DNA of 11,329 bases from a virus (IMGVR_UViG_2648501466_000015), one strand, 5' to 3'; positions 1 to 11,230 are shown, counted from the first letter of the stretch. The notes: generated by a model not told the origin, from the letters alone. Program-made: numbers and translations.

Positions 1-114
1 CAGATAGGTCCGGCTGCTCTGAAGGCGGTGTATGACATGGCCCGCAAGGGTGCCCGTGATGAAATTCAGACACAGATGCGTGATGGTGGCCTGTTCTCCG
101 GAGGTGGACGATGA
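1..114 (+). CDS. H: Tail tape-measure protein, C-terminal end only (5' partial; continues upstream of window)
   Basis: Frame 1 reads QIGPAALKAVYDMARKGARDEIQTQMRDGGLFSGGGR then TGA at 112-114; I recognise this as the lambda gpH C-terminus. Stop overlaps the next start as ATGA (111-114), the classic lambda H/M coupling. Confidence 0.8.
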   Translation, partial: QIGPAALKAVYDMARKGARDEIQTQMRDGGLFSGGGR

Positions 115-440
115 AGACCTTCCGCTGGAAAGTGAAACCCGGTATGGATGTGGCTTCGGTCCCTTCTGTAAGAAAGGTGCGCTTTGGTGATGGCTATTCT
201 CAGCGAGCGCCTGCCGGGCTGAATGCCAACCTGAAAACGTACAGCGTGACGCTTTCTGTCCCCCGTGAGGAGGCCACGGTACTGGAGTCGTTTCTGGAAG
301 AGCACGGGGGCTGGAAATCCTTTCTGTGGACGCCGCCTTATGAGTGGCGGCAGATAAAGGTGACCTGCGCAAAATGGTCGTCGCGGGTCAGTATGTTGCG
401 TGTTGAGTTCAGCGCAGAGTTTGAACAGGTGGTGAACTGA
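111..440 (+). CDS. M: Minor tail protein M (tail tip assembly), 109 aa
   Basis: ORF 111..440; protein MKTFRWKVKPGMDVASV...EFEQVVN is recognised as lambda gpM at the same length and position between H and L. Confidence 0.92.
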   Translation: MKTFRWKVKPGMDVASVPSVRKVRFGDGYSQRAPAGLNANLKTYSVTLSVPREEATVLESFLEEHGGWKSFLWTPPYEWRQIKVTCAKWSSRVSMLRVEFSAEFEQVVN

Positions 441-1138
441 TGCAGGATATCCGGCAGGAAACACTGAATGAATGCACCCGTGCGGAGCAGTCGGCCAGCG
501 TGGTGCTCTGGGAAATCGACCTGACAGAGGTCGGTGGAGAACGTTATTTTTTCTGTAATGAGCAGAACGAAAAAGGTGAGCCGGTCACCTGGCAGGGGCG
601 ACAGTATCAGCCGTATCCCATTCAGGGGAGCGGTTTTGAACTGAATGGCAAAGGCACCAGTACGCGCCCCACGCTGACGGTTTCTAACCTGTACGGTATG
701 GTCACCGGGATGGCGGAAGATATGCAGAGTCTGGTCGGCGGAACGGTGGTCCGGCGTAAGGTTTACGCCCGTTTTCTGGATGCGGTGAACTTCGTCAACG
801 GAAACAGTGACGCCGATCCGGAGCAGGAGGTGATCAGCCGCTGGCGCATCGAGCAGTGCAGCGAACTGAGCGCGGTCAGTGCCTCTTTTGTACTGTCCAC
901 GCCGACGGAAACGGACGGTGCCGTTTTTCCGGGACGTATCATGCTGGCCAACACCTGCACCTGGACCTATCGCGGTGATGAGTGCGGTTATCACGGTCCG
1001 GCGGTCGCGGATGAATATGATCAGCCGACGTCCGATATCACGAAGGATAAATGCAGCAAATGCCTGAGCGGCTGTAAGTTTCGCAATAACGTCGGCAACT
1101 TTGGCGGCTTCCTTTCCATTAACAAACTTTCGCAGTAA
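440..1138 (+). CDS. L: Minor tail protein L (tail tip; C-terminal cysteine cluster, Fe-S binding), 232 aa
   Basis: ORF 440..1138, start overlaps M stop (TGATG at 438-442). Protein matches lambda gpL in length and sequence; C-terminus carries cysteines in CTWTYRGDECGYHG...DKCSKCLSGC. Confidence 0.92.
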   Translation: MQDIRQETLNECTRAEQSASVVLWEIDLTEVGGERYFFCNEQNEKGEPVTWQGRQYQPYPIQGSGFELNGKGTSTRPTLTVSNLYGMVTGMAEDMQSLVGGTVVRRKVYARFLDAVNFVNGNSDADPEQEVISRWRIEQCSELSAVSASFVLSTPTETDGAVFPGRIMLANTCTWTYRGDECGYHGPAVADEYDQPTSDITKDKCSKCLSGCKFRNNVGNFGGFLSINKLSQ

Positions 1139-1143
1139 ATCCC

Positions 1144-1887
1144 ATGACAGAGACAGAATCAGCGATTCTGGCGCACGCCCGGCGATGTGCGCCAGCGGAG
1201 TCGTGCGGCTTCGTGGTGAGAACACCGGAGGGGGAAAGATATTTTCCCTGCGTGAATATCTCCGGTGAGCCGGAGGCGTATTTCCGGATGTCGCCGGAGG
1301 ACTGGCTGCGGGCAGAGATGCAGGGTGAGATTGTGGCGCTGGTCCACAGCCACCCCGGTGGTCTGCCCTGGCTGAGTGAGACCGACCGGCGGCTGCAGGT
1401 GCAGAGTGATTTGCCGTGGTGGCTGGTTTGCCGGGGGGCGATTCACAAGTTCCGCTGTGTGCCACATCTTTCCGGGCGGCGCTTTGAGCACGGGGTGACG
1501 GACTGTTACACGCTGTTCCGGGATGCTTACCATCTGGCGGGGATTGAGATGCCGGATTTTCATCGCGAGGATGACTGGTGGCGTCACGGTCAGAATCTCT
1601 ATCTGGATAATCTGGAGGCCACAGGGCTGTATCAGGTGCCGTTGTCATCAGCACAACCGGGCGATGTGCTGCTGTGCTGTTTTGGTTCATCGGTGCCGAA
1701 TCATGCCGCCATTTACTGTGGTGACAGCGAGCTGCTGCACCATATTCCTGAACAACTGAGCAAACGAGAGAGGTACACCGACAAATGGCAGCGACGCACA
1801 CACTCCCTCTGGCGTCACCGGGAATGGCACGCATCTGCCTTTACGGGGATTTGCAACGATTTGGCCGCCGCATCGACCTTCGTGTGA
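1144..1887 (+). CDS. K: Tail assembly protein K, JAB/MPN (JAMM) plus NlpC/P60 peptidase domains; ORF is 247 aa from ATG 1144, lambda-annotated start corresponds to ATG 1288 (199 aa)
   Basis: Open frame 1144..1887. JAMM motif H-S-H-x7-S-x2-D (HSHPGGLPWLSETD) encoded at 1345-1386; NlpC/P60-like Cys in GVTDCYTLF (~1504) and downstream His residues. GGAGG at 1272-1276 precedes ATG 1288, so both starts are plausible; the longer one better accommodates an MPN fold. Confidence 0.85.
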   Translation: MTETESAILAHARRCAPAESCGFVVRTPEGERYFPCVNISGEPEAYFRMSPEDWLRAEMQGEIVALVHSHPGGLPWLSETDRRLQVQSDLPWWLVCRGAIHKFRCVPHLSGRRFEHGVTDCYTLFRDAYHLAGIEMPDFHREDDWWRHGQNLYLDNLEATGLYQVPLSSAQPGDVLLCCFGSSVPNHAAIYCGDSELLHHIPEQLSKRERYTDKWQRRTHSLWRHREWHASAFTGICNDLAAASTFV

Positions 1888-2456
1888 AAACGGGGGCTGA
1901 AGCCATCCGCGCACTGGCCACACAGCTCCCGGCGTTTCGTCAGAAACTGAGCGACGGCTGGTATCAGGTACGGATTGCCGGGCGGGACGTCAGCACGTCC
2001 GGGTTAACGGCGCAGTTACATGAGACTCTGCCTGACGGCGCTGTGATTCATATTGTTCCCAGCGTCGCCGGGGCCAAGTCAGGGGGCGTATTCCAGATTG
2101 TTCTGGGGGCTGCCGCCATTGCCGGATCATTCTTTACTGCCGGAGCCACCCTTGCAGCATGGGGGGCAGCCATTGGGGCCGGTGGTATGACCGGCATCCT
2201 GTTTTCTCTCGGTGCCAGTATGGTGCTCGGTGGTGTGGCGCAGATGCTGGCACCGAAAGCCAGAACTCCCCGTACACAGACAACGGATAACGGTAAGCAG
2301 AACACCTATTTCTCCTCACTGGATAACATGGTTGCCCAGGGCAATGTTCTGCCTGTTCTGTACGGGGAAATGCGCGTGGGGTCACGCGTGGTTTCTCAGG
2401 AGATCAGCACGGCAGACGAAGGGGACGGTGGTCAGGTTGTGGTGATTGGTCGCTGA
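1785..2456 (+). CDS. I: Tail assembly protein I (ubiquitin-like N-terminal region, Gly/Ala-rich hydrophobic C-terminal region), 223 aa
   Basis: ORF 1785..2456, overlapping the 3' end of K by 103 nt in a different frame, as in lambda. Protein MAATHTLPLASPGMARICLYGDLQRFG...GGQVVVIGR is recognised as lambda gpI. Confidence 0.9.
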   Translation: MAATHTLPLASPGMARICLYGDLQRFGRRIDLRVKTGAEAIRALATQLPAFRQKLSDGWYQVRIAGRDVSTSGLTAQLHETLPDGAVIHIVPSVAGAKSGGVFQIVLGAAAIAGSFFTAGATLAAWGAAIGAGGMTGILFSLGASMVLGGVAQMLAPKARTPRTQTTDNGKQNTYFSSLDNMVAQGNVLPVLYGEMRVGSRVVSQEISTADEGDGGQVVVIGR

Positions 2457-2474: not shown

Positions 2475-2494
2475 AAACCGCCTCCGGGCGGTTT
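2475..2494 (+). other. Perfect 8-bp stem-loop in the I-J intergenic spacer (AAACCGCC-TCCG-GGCGGTTT)
   Basis: Seen directly: 2475-2482 AAACCGCC is the reverse complement of 2487-2494 GGCGGTTT, 4-nt loop; followed by TGTCATTT. The T-run is mostly inside the stem, so termination is doubtful; could be an RNA processing or stability element. Confidence 0.3.
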
Positions 2495-2516
2495 TGTCAT
2501 TTATGGAGCGTGAGGA

Positions 2517-5500
2517 ATGGGTAAAGGAAGCAGTAAGGGGCATACCCCGCGCGAAGCGAAGGACAACCTGAAGTCCACGCAGTTGCTGAGTGTGATCGAT
2601 GCCATCAGCGAAGGGCCGGTTGAAGGTCCGGTGGATGGATTAAAAAGCGTGCTGCTGAACAGTACGCCAGTGCTGGACAGTGAGGGGAATACCAACATCT
2701 CCGGCATCACGGTGGTGTTCCGTGCCGGTGAGCAGGAGCAGACACCGCCGGAGGGGTTTGAATCCTCCGGCTCCGAGACGGTGCTGGGTACGGAAGTGAA
2801 ATATGACACGCCGATCACCCGCACCATTACGTCTGCAAACATCGACCGTCTGCGCTTTACCTTCGGCGTGCAGGCACTGGTGGAAACCACCTCAAAGGGG
2901 GACCGGAATCCGTCGGAAGTCCGCCTGCTGGTTCAGATCCAGCGTAATGGTGGCTGGGTGACGGAAAAAGACATCACCATTAAGGGCAAAACCACCTCGC
3001 AGTATCTGGCCTCGGTGGTGGTGGGTAACCTGCCGCCGCGCCCGTTCAATATACGGATGCGCAGGATGACGCCGGACAGCACCACAGACCAGCTGCAGAA
3101 CAAAACGCTCTGGTCGTCATACACCGAAATCATCGATGTGAAACAGTGCTACCCGAACACGGCACTGGTCGGCGTGCAGGTGGATTCGGAGCAGTTCGGC
3201 AGCCAGCAGGTGAGCCGTAATTATCATCTGCGCGGGCGCATTCTGCAGGTGCCGTCGAACTATAACCCGCAGACGCGGCAATACAGCGGTATCTGGGACG
3301 GAACGTTTAAACCGGCATACAGCAACAACATGGCCTGGTGTCTGTGGGATATGCTGACCCATCCGCGCTACGGCATGGGGAAACGTCTTGGTGCGGCGGA
3401 TGTGGATAAATGGGCGCTGTATGTCATCGGCCAGAATTGCGACCAGTCGGTGCCGGACGGCTTTGGCGGCACGGAGCCGCGCATCACCTGTAATGCCTGG
3501 CTGACCACACAGCGCAAGGCGTGGGATGTGCTCAGTGATTTCTGCTCGGCGATGCGCTGTATGCCGATATGGAACGGGCAGACGCTGACGTTCGTGCAGG
3601 ACCGACCATCAGATAAGGTGTGGACCTATAACCGCAGTAATGTGGTGATGCCGGATGATGGCGCGCCGTTCCGCTACAGCTTCAGCGCCCTGAAGGACCG
3701 CCATAATGCCGTTGAGGTGAACTGGATTGACCCGAACAACGGCTGGGAGACGGCGACAGAGCTTGTGGAGGACACGCAGGCCATTGCCCGTTACGGTCGT
3801 AACGTCACGAAGATGGATGCCTTTGGCTGTACCAGCCGGGGGCAGGCACACCGCGCCGGGCTGTGGCTGATTAAAACGGAACTGCTGGAAACGCAGACCG
3901 TGGACTTCAGCGTGGGTGCGGAAGGGCTTCGCCATGTACCGGGCGATGTCATTGAAATCTGCGATGATGACTATGCCGGTATCAGCACCGGCGGGCGCGT
4001 GCTGGCGGTGAACAGCCAGACCCGGACGCTGACGCTCGACCGTGAAATCACGCTGCCATCCTCCGGTACCACGCTGATAAGCCTGGTTGACGGAAGTGGC
4101 AATCCGGTCAGCGTGGAGGTCCAGTCCGTCACCGACGGCGTGAAGGTAAAAGTGAGCCGTGTTCCTGACGGCGTTGCCGGATACAGCGTGTGGGGGCTGA
4201 AGCTGCCGACGCTGCGCCAGCGACTGTTCCGCTGCGTGAGTATCCGTGAGAACGACGACGGCACGTATGCCATCACCGCCGTGCAGCATGTGCCGGAAAA
4301 AGAGGCCATCGTGGATAACGGGGCGCACTTTGACGGCGACCAGAGCGGCACGGTGAATGGTGTCACGCCGCCAGCGGTGCAGCACCTGACTGCCGAAGTC
4401 ACCGCAGACAGCGGGGAATATCAGGTACTGGCGCGCTGGGACACACCGAAGGTGGTGAAGGGCGTGAGCTTCCTGCTCCGTCTGACCGTAACAGCGGACG
4501 ACGGCAGTGAGCGGCTGGTCAGCACGGCCCGGACGACGGAAACCACATACCGCTTCACACAACTGGCGTTGGGGAACTACAGGCTGACAGTCCGGGCGGT
4601 AAATGCGTGGGGACAGCAGGGCGATCCGGCATCGGTATCGTTCCGGATTGCCGCACCGGCAGCGCCGTCTCGGATTGAGCTGACACCGGGCTATTTTCAG
4701 ATAACCGCCACGCCGCATCTTGCGGTTTATGACCCGACGGTACAGTTTGAGTTCTGGTTCTCGGAAAAACGGATTGCGGATATCAGGCAGGTTGAAACCA
4801 GCGCGCGTTATCTTGGTACGGCACTGTACTGGATAGCCGCCAGTATCAATATCAAACCGGGCCATGATTATTATTTTTACGTTCGCAGTGTGAACACCGT
4901 TGGCAAATCGGCATTCGTGGAGGCTGTCGGTCAGCCGAGTGATGATGCATCAGGCTATCTGGATTTTTTCAAAGGCGAGATAGGGAAAACCCATCTGGCT
5001 CAGGAGCTGTGGACGCAGATTGATAACGGTCAGCTTGCGCCTGACCTGACTGAAATCAGGACGTCCATAACGGATGTCAGCAATGAAATAACACAGACCG
5101 TCAATAAGAAACTGGAAGACCAGAGTGCAGCGATCCAGCAGATACAGAAGGTTCAGGTTGATACAAATAATAACCTGAACAGCATGTGGGCAGTGAAGCT
5201 GCAGCAGATGCAGGACGGACGCCTTTATATTGCGGGTATCGGTGCCGGTATTGAGAACACCCCTGACGGCATGCAGAGTCAGGTGCTGCTGGCAGCAGAC
5301 AGGATTGCGATGATTAATCCTGCGAATGGCAACACAAAGCCGATGTTTGTTGGTCAGGGCGATCAGATATTCATGAATGAAGTGTTCCTGAAACGCCTGA
5401 CGGCCCCCACCATTACCAGCGGCGGTAATCCTCCGGCATTTTCCCTGACATCAGACGGGAGACTGACGGCGAAAAATGCGGATATCAGTGGCAGTGTGAA

Positions 5501-6014
5501 TGCGAACTCAGGAACGCTCAACAATGTCACGATTAACCAGAACTGTACGATTAAGGGCATGCTGGAGGCGACCCAGGTCAGAGGAGATTTCGTTAAAGCT
5601 GTATCAAAAGCCTTCCCGAAAAAAGTCGGTACGTGGGGTAACACGGAAACACCAAACGGGACGGTTACAGTCACCATCAGCGATGATCATAACTTTGACC
5701 GCCAGATTATTATTCCGCCCATTATTTTTAACGGTATAGCGTATGACGATCCGGGGAGCGGAAATAACCCAGGAGGCACGCGATACACGGGTTATGGTTT
5801 TGAAGTTCGCAAAAACGGCGTATTAATCGCATCCAGAGAAACTAAAGGGGCCATTCCCGGTAGTTACAGTGCAGTTATTGATATGCCGAGTGGCAGGGGA
5901 AGCGTCACTCTGGAGTTTAAGATTTTCCAGAAAGGCAATCAGGGGGCAGGCAATATCACCGACTGTACGGTGATTGTGACCAAAAAAGCCGCTTCCGGCA
6001 TCAGTATTCGTTGA
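2517..6014 (+). CDS. J: Host specificity protein J (tail tip central fibre), 1165 aa
   Basis: ORF 2517..6014 with GAGG at 2511-2514 before the ATG. The N-terminal ~800 aa ([34 protein letters not shown]...) are recognised as near-identical to lambda gpJ, including a fibronectin-III-like segment (~4370-4660). The C-terminal ~330 aa diverge from lambda J as I remember it. Confidence 0.95.
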
Positions 6015-6084: not shown

Positions 6085-6684
6085 ATGCGTAAAGTTTGTG
6101 CAGCAATTTTGTCCGCAGCCATTTGTCTGGCCGTATCCGGTGCGCCTGCATGGGCGTCTGAACATCAGTCCACGCTGAGCGCGGGGTATCTTCATGCCTC
6201 GACGAACGTCCCCGGCAGCGATGATCTGAACGGGATTAACGTGAAATACCGTTATGAGTTTACGGACACACTGGGGCTGGTGACGTCATTCAGCTATGCA
6301 GGAGACAAGAATCGCCAGCTGACCCGTTACAGCGATACCCGCTGGCATGAAGATTCCGTTCGTAACCGCTGGTTCAGCGTAATGGCGGGGCCGTCTGTGC
6401 GCGTGAATGAATGGTTCAGCGCGTATGCGATGGCGGGTGTAGCTTACAGCCGTGTGTCGACTTTCTCCGGGGATTATCTTCGCGTAACTGACAACAAGGG
6501 GAAAAAGCACGATGTGCTGACCGGAAGTGATGACGGTCGCCACAGCAACACGTCTCTGGCGTGGGGGGCTGGCGTGCAGTTTAACCCGACCGAATCCGTG
6601 GCCATTGATATTGCTTATGAAGGCTCCGGCAGTGGTGACTGGCGCACTGACGGTTTCATCGTGGGTGTCGGTTATAAATTCTGA
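6085..6684 (+). CDS. lom: Lom-like outer membrane beta-barrel protein (Ail/Lom/PagC family), 199 aa with predicted signal peptide
   Basis: ORF 6085..6684 with GAGAGG (6073-6078) upstream. N-terminal signal peptide MRKVCAAILSAAICLAVSGAPAWA; C-terminus AIDIAYEGSGSGDWRTDGFIVGVGYKF recognised as identical to the lambda Lom C-terminus; internal GINVKYRYE and SAYAMAGVA conserved, predicted loops divergent. Confidence 0.88.
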   Translation: MRKVCAAILSAAICLAVSGAPAWASEHQSTLSAGYLHASTNVPGSDDLNGINVKYRYEFTDTLGLVTSFSYAGDKNRQLTRYSDTRWHEDSVRNRWFSVMAGPSVRVNEWFSAYAMAGVAYSRVSTFSGDYLRVTDNKGKKHDVLTGSDDGRHSNTSLAWGAGVQFNPTESVAIDIAYEGSGSGDWRTDGFIVGVGYKF

Positions 6685-6737: not shown

Positions 6738-6748
6738 GTGGGGTGAAT

Positions 6749-9700
6749 ATGGCAGTAAAGATTTCAGGTGTACTGAAAGACGGCACAGGAAAACCGGTAC
6801 AGAACTGCACAATCCAGCTGAAAGCAAAACGTAACAGCACCACGGTGGTGGTGAACACGCTGGCCTCAGAAAATCCGGATGAAGCCGGGCGTTACAGCAT
6901 GGACGTTGAGTACGGGCAGTACAGCGTTATTCTGTTGGTGGAGGGATTCCCGCCGTCACATGCCGGGACCATCACCGTGTATGAAGATTCCCGACCCGGT
7001 ACGCTGAATGATTTTCTCGGTGCCATGACGGAGGATGATGCCCGTCCTGAGGCACTGCGCCGTTTTGAACTGATGGTGGAAGAGGTGGCGCGTAACGCGT
7101 CCGCGGTGGCACAGAACACGGCAGCCGCGAAGAAGTCAGCCAGCGATGCCAGCACATCAGCCCGTGAGGCGGCAACCCATGCGACTGATGCTGCAGGCTC
7201 AGCACGCGCAGCCAGCACGTCAGCCGGACAGGCCGCGTCGTCGGCTCAGTCAGCATCTTCCAGCGCAGGAACGGCATCAACAAAGGCCAGTGAAGCATCG
7301 AAAAGTGCTGCTGCTGCAGAGTCCTCAAAAAGCGCGGCAGCTACCAGTGCCGGTGCGGCGAAAACGTCAGAAACGAATGCGGCAGCGTCACAACAATCAG
7401 CAGCCACTTCTGCATCCGCCGCGACCACGAAGGCGTCAGAAGCAGCCACCTCAGCCCGGGATGCGGCGGCCTCAAAAGAGGCAGCGAAATCATCAGAAAC
7501 GAACGCATCATCAAGCGCCAGTAGTGCCGCTTCCTCGGCAACGGCGGCAGGCAATTCCGCGAAGGCGGCAAAGACGTCTGAGACAAACGCCAGGTCTTCT
7601 GAAACGGCAGCGGGACAGAGCGCCTCGGCTGCGGCAGGCTCAAAAACAGCGGCTGCGTCGTCTGCCAGTGCCGCGTCAACAAGTGCCGGGCAGGCCTCAG
7701 CCAGTGCCACCGCCGCCGGAAAATCGGCAGAAAGCGCCGCATCGTCTGCTTCAACAGCCACAACGAAGGCTGGCGAAGCCACTGAACAGGCCAGCGCAGC
7801 AGCAAGGTCTGCTTCCGCAGCGAAGACATCCGAGACGAACGCGAAAGCGTCGGAAACCAGCGCAGAATCCTCAAAAACGGCTGCCGCATCGTCCGCCAGT
7901 TCGGCGGCGTCATCGGCATCATCGGCGTCTGCTTCAAAAGATGAGGCGACCAGACAAGCGTCCGCAGCGAAGGGCAGCGCCACGACGGCATCCACGAAGG
8001 CGACAGAGGCAGCTGGCAGTGCGACGGCGGCAGCACAGAGCAAAAGTACGGCGGAATCCGCGGCAACGCGCGCCGAGACAGCGGCAAAACGGGCAGAGGA
8101 TATTGCATCCGCCGTGGCGCTTGAGGATGCAAGTACGACGAAAAAGGGGATAGTACAGCTCAGCAGTGCGACCAACAGTACGTCTGAAACGCTGGCGGCA
8201 ACGCCAAAGGCAGTAAAATCAGCCTATGACAATGCAGAGAAACGTCTGCAGAAAGACCAGAACGGCGCTGATATACCCGATAAGGGACGCTTCCTGAACA
8301 ACATTAACGCGGTCAGTAAAACAGACTTTGCTGATAAGCGTGGTATGCGTTATGTGCGGGTTAACGCTCCTGCAGGTGCAACATCTGGAAAATATTACCC
8401 TGTTGTTGTTATGCGTTCTGCTGGCTCAGTAAGCGAACTGGCATCAAGGGTCATTATCACCACGGCAACGCGAACCGCAGGCGATCCGATGAATAACTGC
8501 GAGTTTAACGGATTTGTTATGCCTGGTGGCTGGACTGACAGGGGGCGTTATGCTTATGGAATGTTCTGGCAATATCAAAACAATGAACGAGCCATCCACT
8601 CAATAATGATGAGTAATAAGGGCGATGATTTGCGCTCTGTGTTCTATGTTGATGGCGCTGCTTTCCCTGTTTTTGCGTTTATCGAAGATGGCCTGTCAAT
8701 ATCCGCACCTGGTGCTGATCTCGTTGTTAATGATACGACCTATAAGTTTGGGGCAACAAATCCGGCGACTGAATGTATCGCGGCGGACGTTATCCTTGAT
8801 TTTAAGAGTGGGCGTGGTTTTTATGAGTCTCATTCGTTAATCGTTAACGATAACTTGTCGTGCAAAAAACTTTTTGCCACAGACGAAATTGTAGCGCGTG
8901 GTGGTAATCAGATTCGAATGATAGGTGGGGAGTATGGGGCATTATGGCGTAATGATGGCGCTAAAACTTACCTGCTGCTTACCAATCAAGGTGATGTTTA
9001 TGGTGGCTGGAATACATTAAGACCGTTTGCTATTGATAACGCAACCGGCGAACTGGTTATTGGAACCAAACTGTCCGCAAGTCTGAACGGTAATGCATTA
9101 ACAGCAACAAAGCTGCAAACGCCAAGACGGGTTTCTGGTGTTGAGTTTGATGGTTCCAAAGATATTACTTTAACCGCCGCGCATGTGGCTGCTTTTGCCA
9201 GAAGGGCAACGGATACATATGCCGATGCGGATGGTGGCGTTCCCTGGAATGCCGAATCAGGCGCTTATAATGTCACCCGCTCTGGCGACAGCTATATTCT
9301 GGTTAACTTCTATACCGGAGTCGGAAGTTGCCGGACCTTGCAGATGAAGGCGCATTACAGAAATGGTGGTCTGTTCTACCGTTCTTCAAGAGACGGTTAT
9401 GGTTTTGAGGATGACTGGGCAGAAGTTTATACCTCGAAAAATCTTCCACCAGAAAGCTACCCAGTCGGCGCACCAATCCCGTGGCCATCAGATACCGTTC
9501 CGTCTGGTTATGCCCTGATGCAGGGGCAGACTTTTGACAAATCTGCTTACCCGAAACTTGCAGCCGCTTATCCGTCAGGCGTGATCCCTGATATGCGTGG
9601 CTGGACGATTAAGGGCAAACCTGCCAGTGGTCGGGCCGTATTGTCTCAGGAACAGGACGGCATTAAATCGCATACCCACAGCGCCAGCGCATCCAGTACA

Positions 9701-10147
9701 GATTTGGGGACGAAAACCACATCGTCGTTTGATTACGGCACTAAATCCACGAATAACACTGGTGCGCATACCCATAGTTTAAGTGGCAGCACGAATGCAG
9801 CTGGTAATCACAGCCATAGAGATGGCCGTCGATTTAACCCCAGTGTTTTTAAAGATACTTATCAATATGGTTATACAAGCTCAGGTCAAAATACCTGGGG
9901 TGTACAAGGCTCAGTAGGTATGTCTACGGGGTGGTTAGCGAATACCAGTACAGATGGTAATCATAGCCATTCACTGTCCGGCACAGCAGCATCTGCAGGT
10001 GCACACGCGCATACTGTCGGTATTGGTGCTCATACGCACTCCGTTGCGATTGGTTCACATGGACACACCATCACCGTTAACGCTGCTGGTAACGCGGAAA
10101 ACACCGTCAAAAACATCGCATTTAACTATATTGTGAGGCTTGCATAA
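6749..10147 (+). CDS. stf: Side tail fibre protein Stf, ~1132 aa from ATG 6749 (an in-frame GTG at 6743 would add 2 codons)
   Basis: Long ORF. N-terminus [34 protein letters not shown] recognised as lambda Stf; long Ala/Ser/Thr-rich low-complexity shaft (~7090-8110); C-terminal region with seven H-x-H motifs (HTH, HSH, HAH, HGH) ending [19 protein letters not shown], as in lambda Stf and Rac StfR. Confidence 0.9.
7090..8110 (+). repeat. Imperfect tandem low-complexity coding repeats (Ala/Ser/Thr-rich, recurring KTSETNA / SSASSA units) inside stf
   Basis: Seen directly: recurring DNA units such as AAAACGTCAGAAACGAATGC (~7358), TCATCAGAAACGAACGC (~7490), AAGACGTCTGAGACAAACGC (~7573), AAGACATCCGAGACGAACGC (~7824). 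The GC-rich repeat biases codons so that long spurious ORFs open in other frames on both strands. Confidence 0.6.
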
Positions 10148-10722
10148 TGGCATTCAGAATGAGTGAACAACCACGGACCATAAAAATTTATAATCTGCTG
10201 GCCGGAACTAATGAATTTATTGGTGAAGGTGACGCATATATTCCGCCTCATACAGGTCTGCCAGCAAACAGTACCGATATTGCACCACCAGATATTCCTG
10301 CTGGCTTTGTGGCTGTTTTCAACAGTGATGAGGCATCGTGGCATCTCGTTGAAGATCATCGGGGTAAAACGGTTTATGACGTGGCTTCCGGCGACGCGTT
10401 ATTTATTTCTGAACTCGGTCCGTTACCGAAAAATGTTACCTGGTTATCGCCGGAAGGGGAGTTTCAGAAGTGGAACGGCACAGCCTGGGTGAAGGATACG
10501 GAAGCAGAAAAACTGTTCCGGATCCGGGAGGCGGAAGAAACAAAAAATAACCTGATGCAGGTAGCCAGTGAGCATATTGCGCCGCTTCAGGATGCTGCAG
10601 ATCTGGAAATTGCAACGGAGGAAGAAATCTCGTTGCTGGAAGCATGGAAAAAGTATCGGGTATTGCTGAACCGTGTTGATACGTCAACTGCACAGGATAT
10701 TGAATGGCCAGCACTGCCGTAG
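10147..10722 (+). CDS. tfa: Tail fibre assembly protein Tfa (fibre chaperone), 191 aa
   Basis: ORF 10147..10722, start overlapping stf stop (TAATG at 10145-10149). Protein [34 protein letters not shown]... recognised as lambda Tfa / TfaR-TfaQ family. Confidence 0.9.
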
Positions 10723-10819: not shown

Positions 10820-11230
10820 TTATATGTCAGGTGTCTGAAGTTTTGCTTTGGCTCTTAAAATGGTTTGCCGCGAGGTTTTGAATTCCCGGGCAATGGCACT
10901 TATACTTACACCTGACTTAATTCGTTCGAATACCGCCTGTTTCTGTTCTTCATTTAACACAGGTGGTCGACCAAAACGTTTCCCTGCGCCGCGGGCTCTT
11001 ACTATCCCGGAATGAGTGCGTTCAAGTAAAAGGTCTCGTTCAAATTCAGCGACTGCTGAAATTACTTGCATCATCATTTTTCCTGTTGGACTGGTCAGGT
11101 CAATGCCCCCCAATGCTAAGCAATGCACTCTGATACCTGTTTCGGTCAGTTGTTCCACTGTTTTCCTGATATCCATTGCATTACAACCAAGGCGATCCAG
11201 TTTTGTCACAATCAATTGATCACCACATTT
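10820..11230 (-). pseudogene. pin: Serine-recombinase DNA invertase (Pin/Gin/Hin family), 5'-truncated: only the C-terminal ~136 codons remain; catalytic N-terminal domain absent
   Basis: Minus-strand frame reads (KCGDQ)[85 protein letters not shown]...KLQTPDI, recognised as the C-terminal two-thirds of PinR/PinQ-type invertases. The only start in the ORF track is a TTG at 11215; the frame closes with a stop at 11261-11263 and no frame upstream encodes the catalytic-serine motif. Confidence 0.8.

Follow-up and report, generated by a model that had tools for sequence, protein, structure and literature searches.

The tail assembly gene K of lambda-type phages as a 247-codon frame: a JAB/JAMM and NlpC/P60 protease paired with the ubiquitin-like protein I

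Introduction

Prokaryotic proteases of the JAB family process ubiquitin-like proteins (Ubls) of the MoaD/ThiS type, and their genes are adjacent to a gene for an Ubl that ends in a conserved glycine. The JAMM motif of such enzymes, E...HxH...S..D, was already listed for the tail assembly protein K of bacteriophage lambda in the 2003 work that defined it (PMC300881). Iyer, Burroughs and Aravind (2006) described K as a combination of JAB and NlpC/P60 domains, and the product of the neighboring gene I as a MoaD/ThiS-like Ubl with a conserved C-terminal glycine, which the JAB domain was predicted to release (PMC1779556). In that study the link between I and the Ubls rests on PSI-BLAST. Cryo-EM of lambda virions found gpK absent and gpI resolved only at residues 134/135-223 (PMC10721106, PMC12617516), and the summary of a 2025 conference talk states that K cleaves I (PMC12908700). 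A 2020 review treated gpK as a 199-residue protein.

Here we describe the K-I locus of a viral sequence (IMGVR_UViG_2648501466_000015); the window is the whole stretch of 11,329 nucleotides that was analyzed. The window K occupies the same position between L and I as lambda gpK (TIPK_LAMBD, NP_040598), from which it differs at about 11 amino acids, and the same 247-residue ORF is found in lambda imm434, DE3, and other resequenced lambdas. In contrast, K of the reference lambda has 199 residues, owing to a missing G. The fold of K is shared with the JAMM1/SAMP2 complex of P. furiosus (5LDA; Foldseek TM 0.68-0.69), as is the E...HxH...S..D motif, and the adjacency to an Ubl gene ending in a conserved glycine is the same as in the prokaryotic JAB systems. 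Unlike those systems, the window has no E1-like or E2-like enzyme, the JAB domain of K is fused to an NlpC/P60 domain, and the Ubl of I ends in G-[A/S/N] rather than in GG.

The second domain of K shares a full-length Pfam match, the Cys-His-His triad, and the structure with E. coli MepS/Spr. Unlike MepS/Spr, K is cytoplasmic and absent from the virion, and it lacks both a signal peptide and a cell-wall-binding domain, which makes peptidoglycan an unlikely substrate. Both the biology of the K-I pair and the start of the 247-residue form have been published or annotated before, and they do not constitute new biology.

Materials and Methods

Relatives of K were collected by a HMMER search over 1.84 billion representative proteins, which yielded 2,771 sequences. 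Conservation of individual K residues was read from an alignment of 88 homologues with 33-58% identity, except where alleles are counted. Divergent viral loci were retrieved with two single distant K homologues as queries. Domains were assigned with Pfam, for which the curated Prok-JAB cut-off is 25 bits; protein models were built with AlphaFold2 and compared with known structures by Foldseek.

Results

Gene layout

The window represents the part of a lambda-type phage or prophage genome that encodes the tail tip and tail fibres (Table 1), and Pfam matches of the neighboring genes give the order M-L-K-I-J, as in lambda. At the DNA level the region is 96-99.7% identical to lambda-type phages; for the K-I stretch, identity is 99.7% with Escherichia phage PhiR34_1 and about 97% with many lambda-type phages. 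Gene I overlaps the final 34 codons of K. An antisense ORF of 498 codons (338-1834) has no Pfam match and was rejected as a gene.

Table 1. Coordinates of genes, domains, and sites in the window, with the evidence for each.
Feature	Position	Strand	Evidence
M	111-440		ORF list, Pfam
L, tail tip hub protein, 232 aa	440-1138	+	Pfam Phage_tail_L, 337.8 bits
K, full length, 247 aa, JAB/JAMM and NlpC/P60	1144-1887	+	Pfam, AlphaFold2, Foldseek
N-terminal 48-codon segment of K, omitted from the 199-aa annotation	1144-1287	+	Prok-JAB match, conservation, codon bias
Glu19 of K, GAG codon, predicted JAMM catalytic glutamate	1198-1200	+	Glu in 87/88 divergent homologues
Internal GGAGG (1272-1276) and ATG 1288 (Met49) of K	1272-1290	+	Sequence
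G absent from J02459/NC_001416	1278	+	Alignment, translations, resequenced lambdas
HSHPGGLPWLSETD, K residues 68-81, predicted zinc ligands H68/H70/D81, and S78	1345-1386	+	Conservation in 88 homologues
NlpC/P60 (C40) peptidase domain of K (predicted), residues 111-224	1474-1815	+	Pfam NLPC_P60, Foldseek
I, 223 aa by classical annotation	1785-2456	+	Pfam Lambda_tail_I, 98.3 bits
Conserved alternative start of I, Met14	ATG 1824	+	
Ubiquitin-like (MoaD/ThiS-like beta-grasp) domain of I, residues 14-97	1824-2075	+	Conservation, Foldseek, PMC1779556
Gly/Ala-rich hydrophobic region of I, residues 102-155	2088-2249	+	Sequence
C-terminal part of I, residues 134-223, tail-tip plug	2184-2453	+	PMC10721106, PMC12617516
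J	2517-6014		
lom	6085-6684		
stf	6743-10147		
tfa	10147-10722		
Invertase remnant, 5'-truncated		-	

The reading frame of K

As had been claimed in an earlier note on this DNA, the frame of K is open from ATG 1144, directly after the stop codon of L: the TAA stop occupies positions 1136-1138, the K start lies 5 nt downstream, and the ORF extends to 1887. Every coordinate given in that note was confirmed. Of 89 close relatives, 88 share the same 744-nt ORF; the sole exception is the lambda reference. The presence of 48 additional open codons is by itself unremarkable, and their coding status rests on other evidence, a part of which comes from the position of the start. Full-length relatives of K with 34-59% identity have 230-260 residues, align from query residues 3-10, and begin 0-7 residues from the K Met1. 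Relative to the position corresponding to Met1, about 125 of 131 divergent viral loci have an ATG between -3 and +5 codons, usually directly after an in-frame stop.

Wherever a locus has an L-like ORF upstream, the ATG of K is nearly always close to its stop (within -8 to +9 nt in 192 of 195 such loci). The ATG lacks a Shine-Dalgarno-like motif in 196 of 215 loci, and ATG 1144 itself has no Shine-Dalgarno sequence of its own. This spacing of start and stop and the missing Shine-Dalgarno sequence suggest that initiation of K is probably coupled to termination of L. In-frame GTG codons at residues 24, 25, and 37 were considered as candidate starts and rejected, as they lie downstream of E19 and their positions are not conserved as starts.

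The long start is in use in current annotation. PGAP reports a 'C40 family peptidase' of 247 residues on at least 1,000 contigs, and the record of phage 434 has the same start. The form of 199 residues is retained in J02459, in the RefSeq lambda genome NC_001416, in the UniProt entry TIPK_LAMBD with accession P03729, and in some recent lambda-hybrid records. The statement of the earlier note that the choice of start and the substrate are still open is therefore out of date, given these annotations and the reported cleavage of I (PMC12908700). In the papers covered by the search, no direct protein-level evidence for the N-terminus of K was found, and none states outright that lambda K has 247 residues. 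A review of frameshifting (PMC5009743) does not mention K.

Residues 1-48 and the JAB/JAMM domain

A Pfam search with the 247-residue form, a check put forward in the earlier note, recovered both domains of K. The score against Prok-JAB (PF14464) is 53.8 bits, above the cut-off, and covers profile positions 4-103 of 114; residues 1-48 alone match the same profile at positions 3-41 (E 3.5e-5). The 199-residue form scores 24.2 bits, covers positions 63-103 only, and fails the cut-off.

The 48 codons also behave as coding sequence. Their variable sites fall at the first, second, and third codon positions in the numbers 8, 3, and 24, compared with 27, 19, and 69 in the remaining part of K; thus, the segment varies mainly at third positions, as K does elsewhere. 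In the alignment of homologues every sequence has G22 and N38, and at least 90% have each of P17, E19, C21, and F47. The extension contains the motif P17-x-E19-x-C21-G22, which corresponds to the P-x-E-x-C-G signature at the N-terminus of prokaryotic JAB domains.

The earlier note had placed a complete JAMM signature at 1345-1386. The sequence HSHPGGLPWLSETD is indeed located there, with H68, H70, and D81 invariant and S69 and S78 at least 90% conserved, but the complete motif also needs E19, which lies in the extension and had escaped notice. The pattern E-x(n)-H-[ST]-H-x7-S-x2-D is matched by E19, H68-S69-H70, S78, and D81, and it is therefore the extension that completes the JAMM motif. All six catalytic residues are retained in 162 of 168 distinct K alleles.

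The AlphaFold2 model of K has a pLDDT of 97.2 and a pTM of 0.91. The extension is modeled with a pLDDT of 97 as a helix (residues 3-15) followed by two strands (21-27 and 30-36), in agreement with the expectation that the long form would give room for the N-terminal strands of an MPN fold. The alignment with 2KKS, a JAB protein of solved structure, begins at K residue 7 and includes LAHAR..P.E.CG. Foldseek matches of the N-terminal half include P. furiosus JAMM1 alone (5ld9) and with SAMP2 (5lda), both with TM 0.68-0.69; further matches are AMSH, AMSH-LP, CSN5, Rpn11, and 2KKS, and all of these, JAMM1 included, have a probability of 1.00. The earlier note had named two grounds on which the long form could be abandoned, a lack of conservation upstream of Met49 and an MPN fold complete without residues 1-48. 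Both points favor the long form: the conserved positions listed above lie upstream of Met49, and the modeled fold uses the helix and the two strands.

Pfam, conservation, codon bias, start positions, and the comparison with 2KKS and the model all show that residues 1-48 are part of the K protein. A complete JAB/JAMM zinc metalloprotease domain, with activity predicted from sequence and model, spans residues 1 to about 105. The frame of 247 codons is the real tail assembly gene K, encoding a two-domain protease paired with the ubiquitin-like I.

Origin of the 199-residue annotation

At the site in question the lambda reference reads GGAGGC-TATTT, whereas the window, phage 434, and phage 2B8 have one base more in the alignment. 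As a result, the first 45 codons (MTQTESAILAHARRCAPAESCGFVV...) of NC_001416/J02459 do not share the frame of the annotated K, and the K frame of the reference is closed upstream, unlike that of the window. The earlier note had described two starts in one open frame; this holds in the window, but in the lambda reference the frame is broken by the missing G. The additional base is present in four separately deposited lambda derivatives, namely lambda imm434 (OM418626), the DE3 prophage of BL21(DE3) (EU078592), lambda from K-12 CV601 (KT232076), and lambda PV340536, each of which encodes a 247-residue K with the ATG 5 nt after L. For the lambda-gt10 transgene of MutaMouse, a whole-genome study records '14266 C>CG' relative to the reference (PMC6760142). 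Among 5,952 places in 5,426 complete E. coli genomes, the shorter reference version was not matched at 99% or more at any; the best matches among those listed have 98.8% identity over 82 bases, that is, they contain the extra base.

The most economical reading is that the 1982 lambda sequence has a one-base omission. One G being absent from that reference, lambda K was annotated short, as the annotators fell back on the next ATG with a good GGAGG. Most economically, then, the canonical 199-residue entry is truncated by a one-base error, and the present result is an annotation correction. A real deletion in the 1982 stock, with K made as two polypeptides or as the 199-residue part only and the phage still viable, could be suggested by two more records that match the reference exactly at the site (OR474059 and OR974322), which were possibly assembled on the reference, and by another tail-gene frameshift carried by laboratory lambda, in stf (PMC10721106). 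We regard such a deletion as very improbable, since the four derivatives and the lambda-gt10 transgene carry the G and the shorter version is missing from the E. coli genomes surveyed.

The internal start itself exists in the window: GGAGG at 1272-1276 and ATG 1288, which the earlier note had pointed out as the short start, are both present. It may be asked, then, whether lambda-like phages make two products, the 247-residue K and a Met49-initiated 199-residue form with NlpC/P60 and without a working JAB domain, which would have separate roles. The GGAGG lies 11 nt before ATG 1288, the pair is retained in 74 of 77 lambda-like alleles with at least 90% identity, and gene callers often pick Met49 although the long frame is intact, which accounts for the 199-residue products in metagenome assemblies. 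But in 91 more distant alleles, below 90% identity, Met49 and the Shine-Dalgarno-like motif never occur together: two alleles have the Met alone, and the residue is mainly Ile. Likewise, 58 of the 88 homologues have Ile at position 49, compared with 13 that have Met. The GGAGG is encoded by the codons of E42-P43-E44, of which P43 is conserved, so that the motif may be there for coding reasons, and in the AlphaFold2 model the Met49 form would start in the middle of the MPN fold. Production of both forms thus appears improbable. Being confined to the lambda-like group, the Met49 start is specific to a single lineage and is probably a side effect of the E-P-E codons. That the 199-residue form is the sole real product, with the upstream frame untranslated, is scarcely credible. 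Such a view agrees with the short annotation in the entries listed above and with the strong Shine-Dalgarno sequence at the internal start, compared with none at ATG 1144. It is opposed by several features of residues 1-48, namely conservation as protein, a bias to third codon positions, the catalytic Glu, and elements of the fold core, by the score of the short form below the Pfam JAB cut-off, and by the single missing base that sets the reference apart from every other sequence examined.

The NlpC/P60 domain

The C-terminal half of the full-length K had been described in the earlier note as NlpC/P60-like from its Cys/His arrangement, and this assignment is borne out by Pfam NLPC_P60 (PF00877; 47.6 bits against a cut-off of 23, profile positions 1-105 of 105). 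Foldseek matches of this half are MepS, Spr, 4hpe, 9ubf, and 7v6s. Each of C121 (codon 1504-1506), H187, and H199 is retained in 87 of the 88 homologues. Residues 111-224 are, on sequence and model, a papain-like NlpC/P60 peptidase with the predicted triad C121/H187/H199.

Gene I and its pairing with K

The pairing of K and I noted earlier holds throughout the loci examined: an I homologue adjoins K in 140 of 140 distinct loci, in 78 of which it is less than 50% identical to the window I. The window I is about 99% identical to the lambda gpI of PDB 8IYK, with three differences in 223 residues. The Lambda_tail_I profile (PF06805, cut-off 23.8 bits) covers residues 14-97, starting at the conserved alternative start Met14. 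Four residues, G21, L23, P92, and G96, are invariant in 140 sequences of I, and the end of the N-terminal domain has the form I-[IV]-P92-x-x-x-G96-[A/S/N], with the G96 codon at 2070-2072. A GG at residues 100-101 is confined to lambda-like sequences.

The AlphaFold2 model of I has a mean pLDDT of 47, and of 52-69 across residues 13-95; this low confidence results from a shallow alignment. All 50 of the 50 best Foldseek matches of this low-confidence model are MoaD, SUMO, SAMP, Urm1, ThiS, or ubiquitin, with MoaD first and a best E of 0.017. Among PDB sequences the N-terminal profile of I found SAMP1 alone, with a non-significant E of 0.66. In an hhalign comparison with E. coli MoaD, only the last 20 residues aligned and the link was not significant; G96 of I stands opposite the first Gly of the C-terminal GG of MoaD in this alignment. 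The ubiquitin-like fold of the N-terminal domain of I is consistent with these results and is established mainly by the literature (PMC1779556).

The earlier note had seen a Gly/Ala-rich hydrophobic tail in I. The stretch is present, but it is not a tail: it forms a linker before the conserved C-terminal domain seen in virions. PMC1779556 calls it a glycine-rich linker, and PMC10721106 describes it as a hydrophobic segment that may insert into the membrane. The gpI chains of PDB 9E7M span residues 133-222, and the lack of a resolved N-terminal part of gpI in virions fits its removal. One gpI peptide (9.87% coverage) appears in the mass-spectrometry table of PMC10721106, which does not give its position; consequently, the table is silent on cleavage. 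Among the window ORFs scanned there is no ThiF/E1 or UBC match, and the neighbors of K and I are tail structural genes only. With no E1 or E2 encoded nearby, the K-I pair most naturally processes a linear precursor and does not take part in conjugation.

Discussion

We consider it highly probable that K starts at ATG 1144 and combines JAB and NlpC/P60 domains, that its JAB domain cuts I near G96, and that the 199-residue K is an annotation artefact. The processing of I by K is in line with the published prediction (PMC1779556), to which the earlier note had also referred. Under this explanation, K would be translated as a 247-residue assembly enzyme that does not enter the virion, and its two domains would pack as a single rigid unit. 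In the JAB active site, E19 would serve as the catalytic glutamate, H68, H70, and D81 would bind zinc, and S78 would complete the motif. The substrate of this domain would be the product of the next gene, I. During tail-tip assembly K would cut I at or just after G96, freeing the ubiquitin-like domain; we infer that the exact bond is at or beside G96. The C-terminal part of I would remain in the tip as a plug under the tape measure protein.

The strict conservation of the NlpC/P60 triad argues for a genuine substrate of the second domain. It is possible, if rather unlikely, that this site acts on a second substrate besides the Ubl junction of I; a candidate is a second cut in I, which would remove the hydrophobic linker and leave residues of about 134-223. 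Another candidate reaction for this domain is the cleavage of gpH to gpH*, for which the catalyst is unknown according to PMC12617516.

The correction has direct practical consequences. J02459/NC_001416 and TIPK_LAMBD omit 48 residues that include the predicted catalytic glutamate and three core elements of the fold. Modeling, expressing, or mutating K from the reference entry would therefore deal with a truncated and probably inactive JAB domain. In the biology of lambda-type phages, the K-I pair would be a known and interesting case in which the sequence of steps in tail-tip assembly is set by a deubiquitinase-like enzyme together with a ubiquitin-like domain that can be removed.

Annotation of genes I and K

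The public records disagree on where gene I begins: four different starts have been annotated between positions 1785 and 1890 of the window (see the table). The match to the Pfam profile for this tail assembly protein begins at residue 14, and the initial methionine of distant homologues falls in alignment columns 12-14. Beyond the lambda group, residues 1-13 show no conservation. Two residues that are invariant among the distinct homologues, G21 and L23 in the numbering of the longest form, are lost in the two shortest versions.

A similar disagreement is observed for K in the records of phage 434 (OL657226) and lambda imm434 (OM418626). Both contain the intact long K frame and share the locus-tag prefix CPT_, yet their annotations of this gene differ.

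Coordinates of the features discussed (window positions unless a record is named)
Feature	Coordinates	Strand	Remarks
K, OL657226 (phage 434)	445-1188		annotated as 247 aa
K, OM418626 (lambda imm434)	595-1338		annotated as 199 aa, with ribosome-binding site
Gene I start, ATG	1785		223 aa; public-record annotation
Gene I start, ATG (Met14)	1824		210 aa; public-record annotation
Gene I start, TTG	1851		201 aa; public-record annotation
Gene I start, GTG	1884		190 aa; overlaps K stop; public-record annotation
Antisense ORF	338-1834	-	498 codons; spans L and K
I-J hairpin and T run	2476-2499		
stf	6743-10147		1134 aa
ORF within stf	7146-8153	+	
ORF within stf	7246-8175	-	
ORF within stf	7341-8132	-	
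tfa	10147-10722		
Serine-invertase (Pin/Hin-like) remnant	10820-11215	-	Resolvase profile match

Other features of the window

The long antisense ORF across L and K had no match in a Pfam search; most likely it arises incidentally from the high GC content of the coding strand. Three further long ORFs, which occupy other reading frames or the opposite strand, are spurious, resulting from the Ala/Ser/Thr-rich low-complexity stretch of approximately 350 residues in the product of stf, the long and intact side tail fibre gene.

Between I and J, a GC-rich hairpin, CCGCCTCCGGGCGG, is followed by a T run, and the equivalent site in the phage 434 record is annotated as a terminator. This position lies within the presumed single late operon.

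The invertase remnant adjoins stf-tfa; in other phages, fibre-inversion systems are located beside such fibre genes. Because the Resolvase profile is matched only from position 68 onward and an in-frame stop immediately precedes the match, the catalytic N-terminus is missing.

The tfa product matches Pfam PF02413 (Caudo_TAP), whose description reads 'lambda gpK'. The real gpK is encoded at 1144-1887, hence a clash of names, and text searches could be misled by this label.
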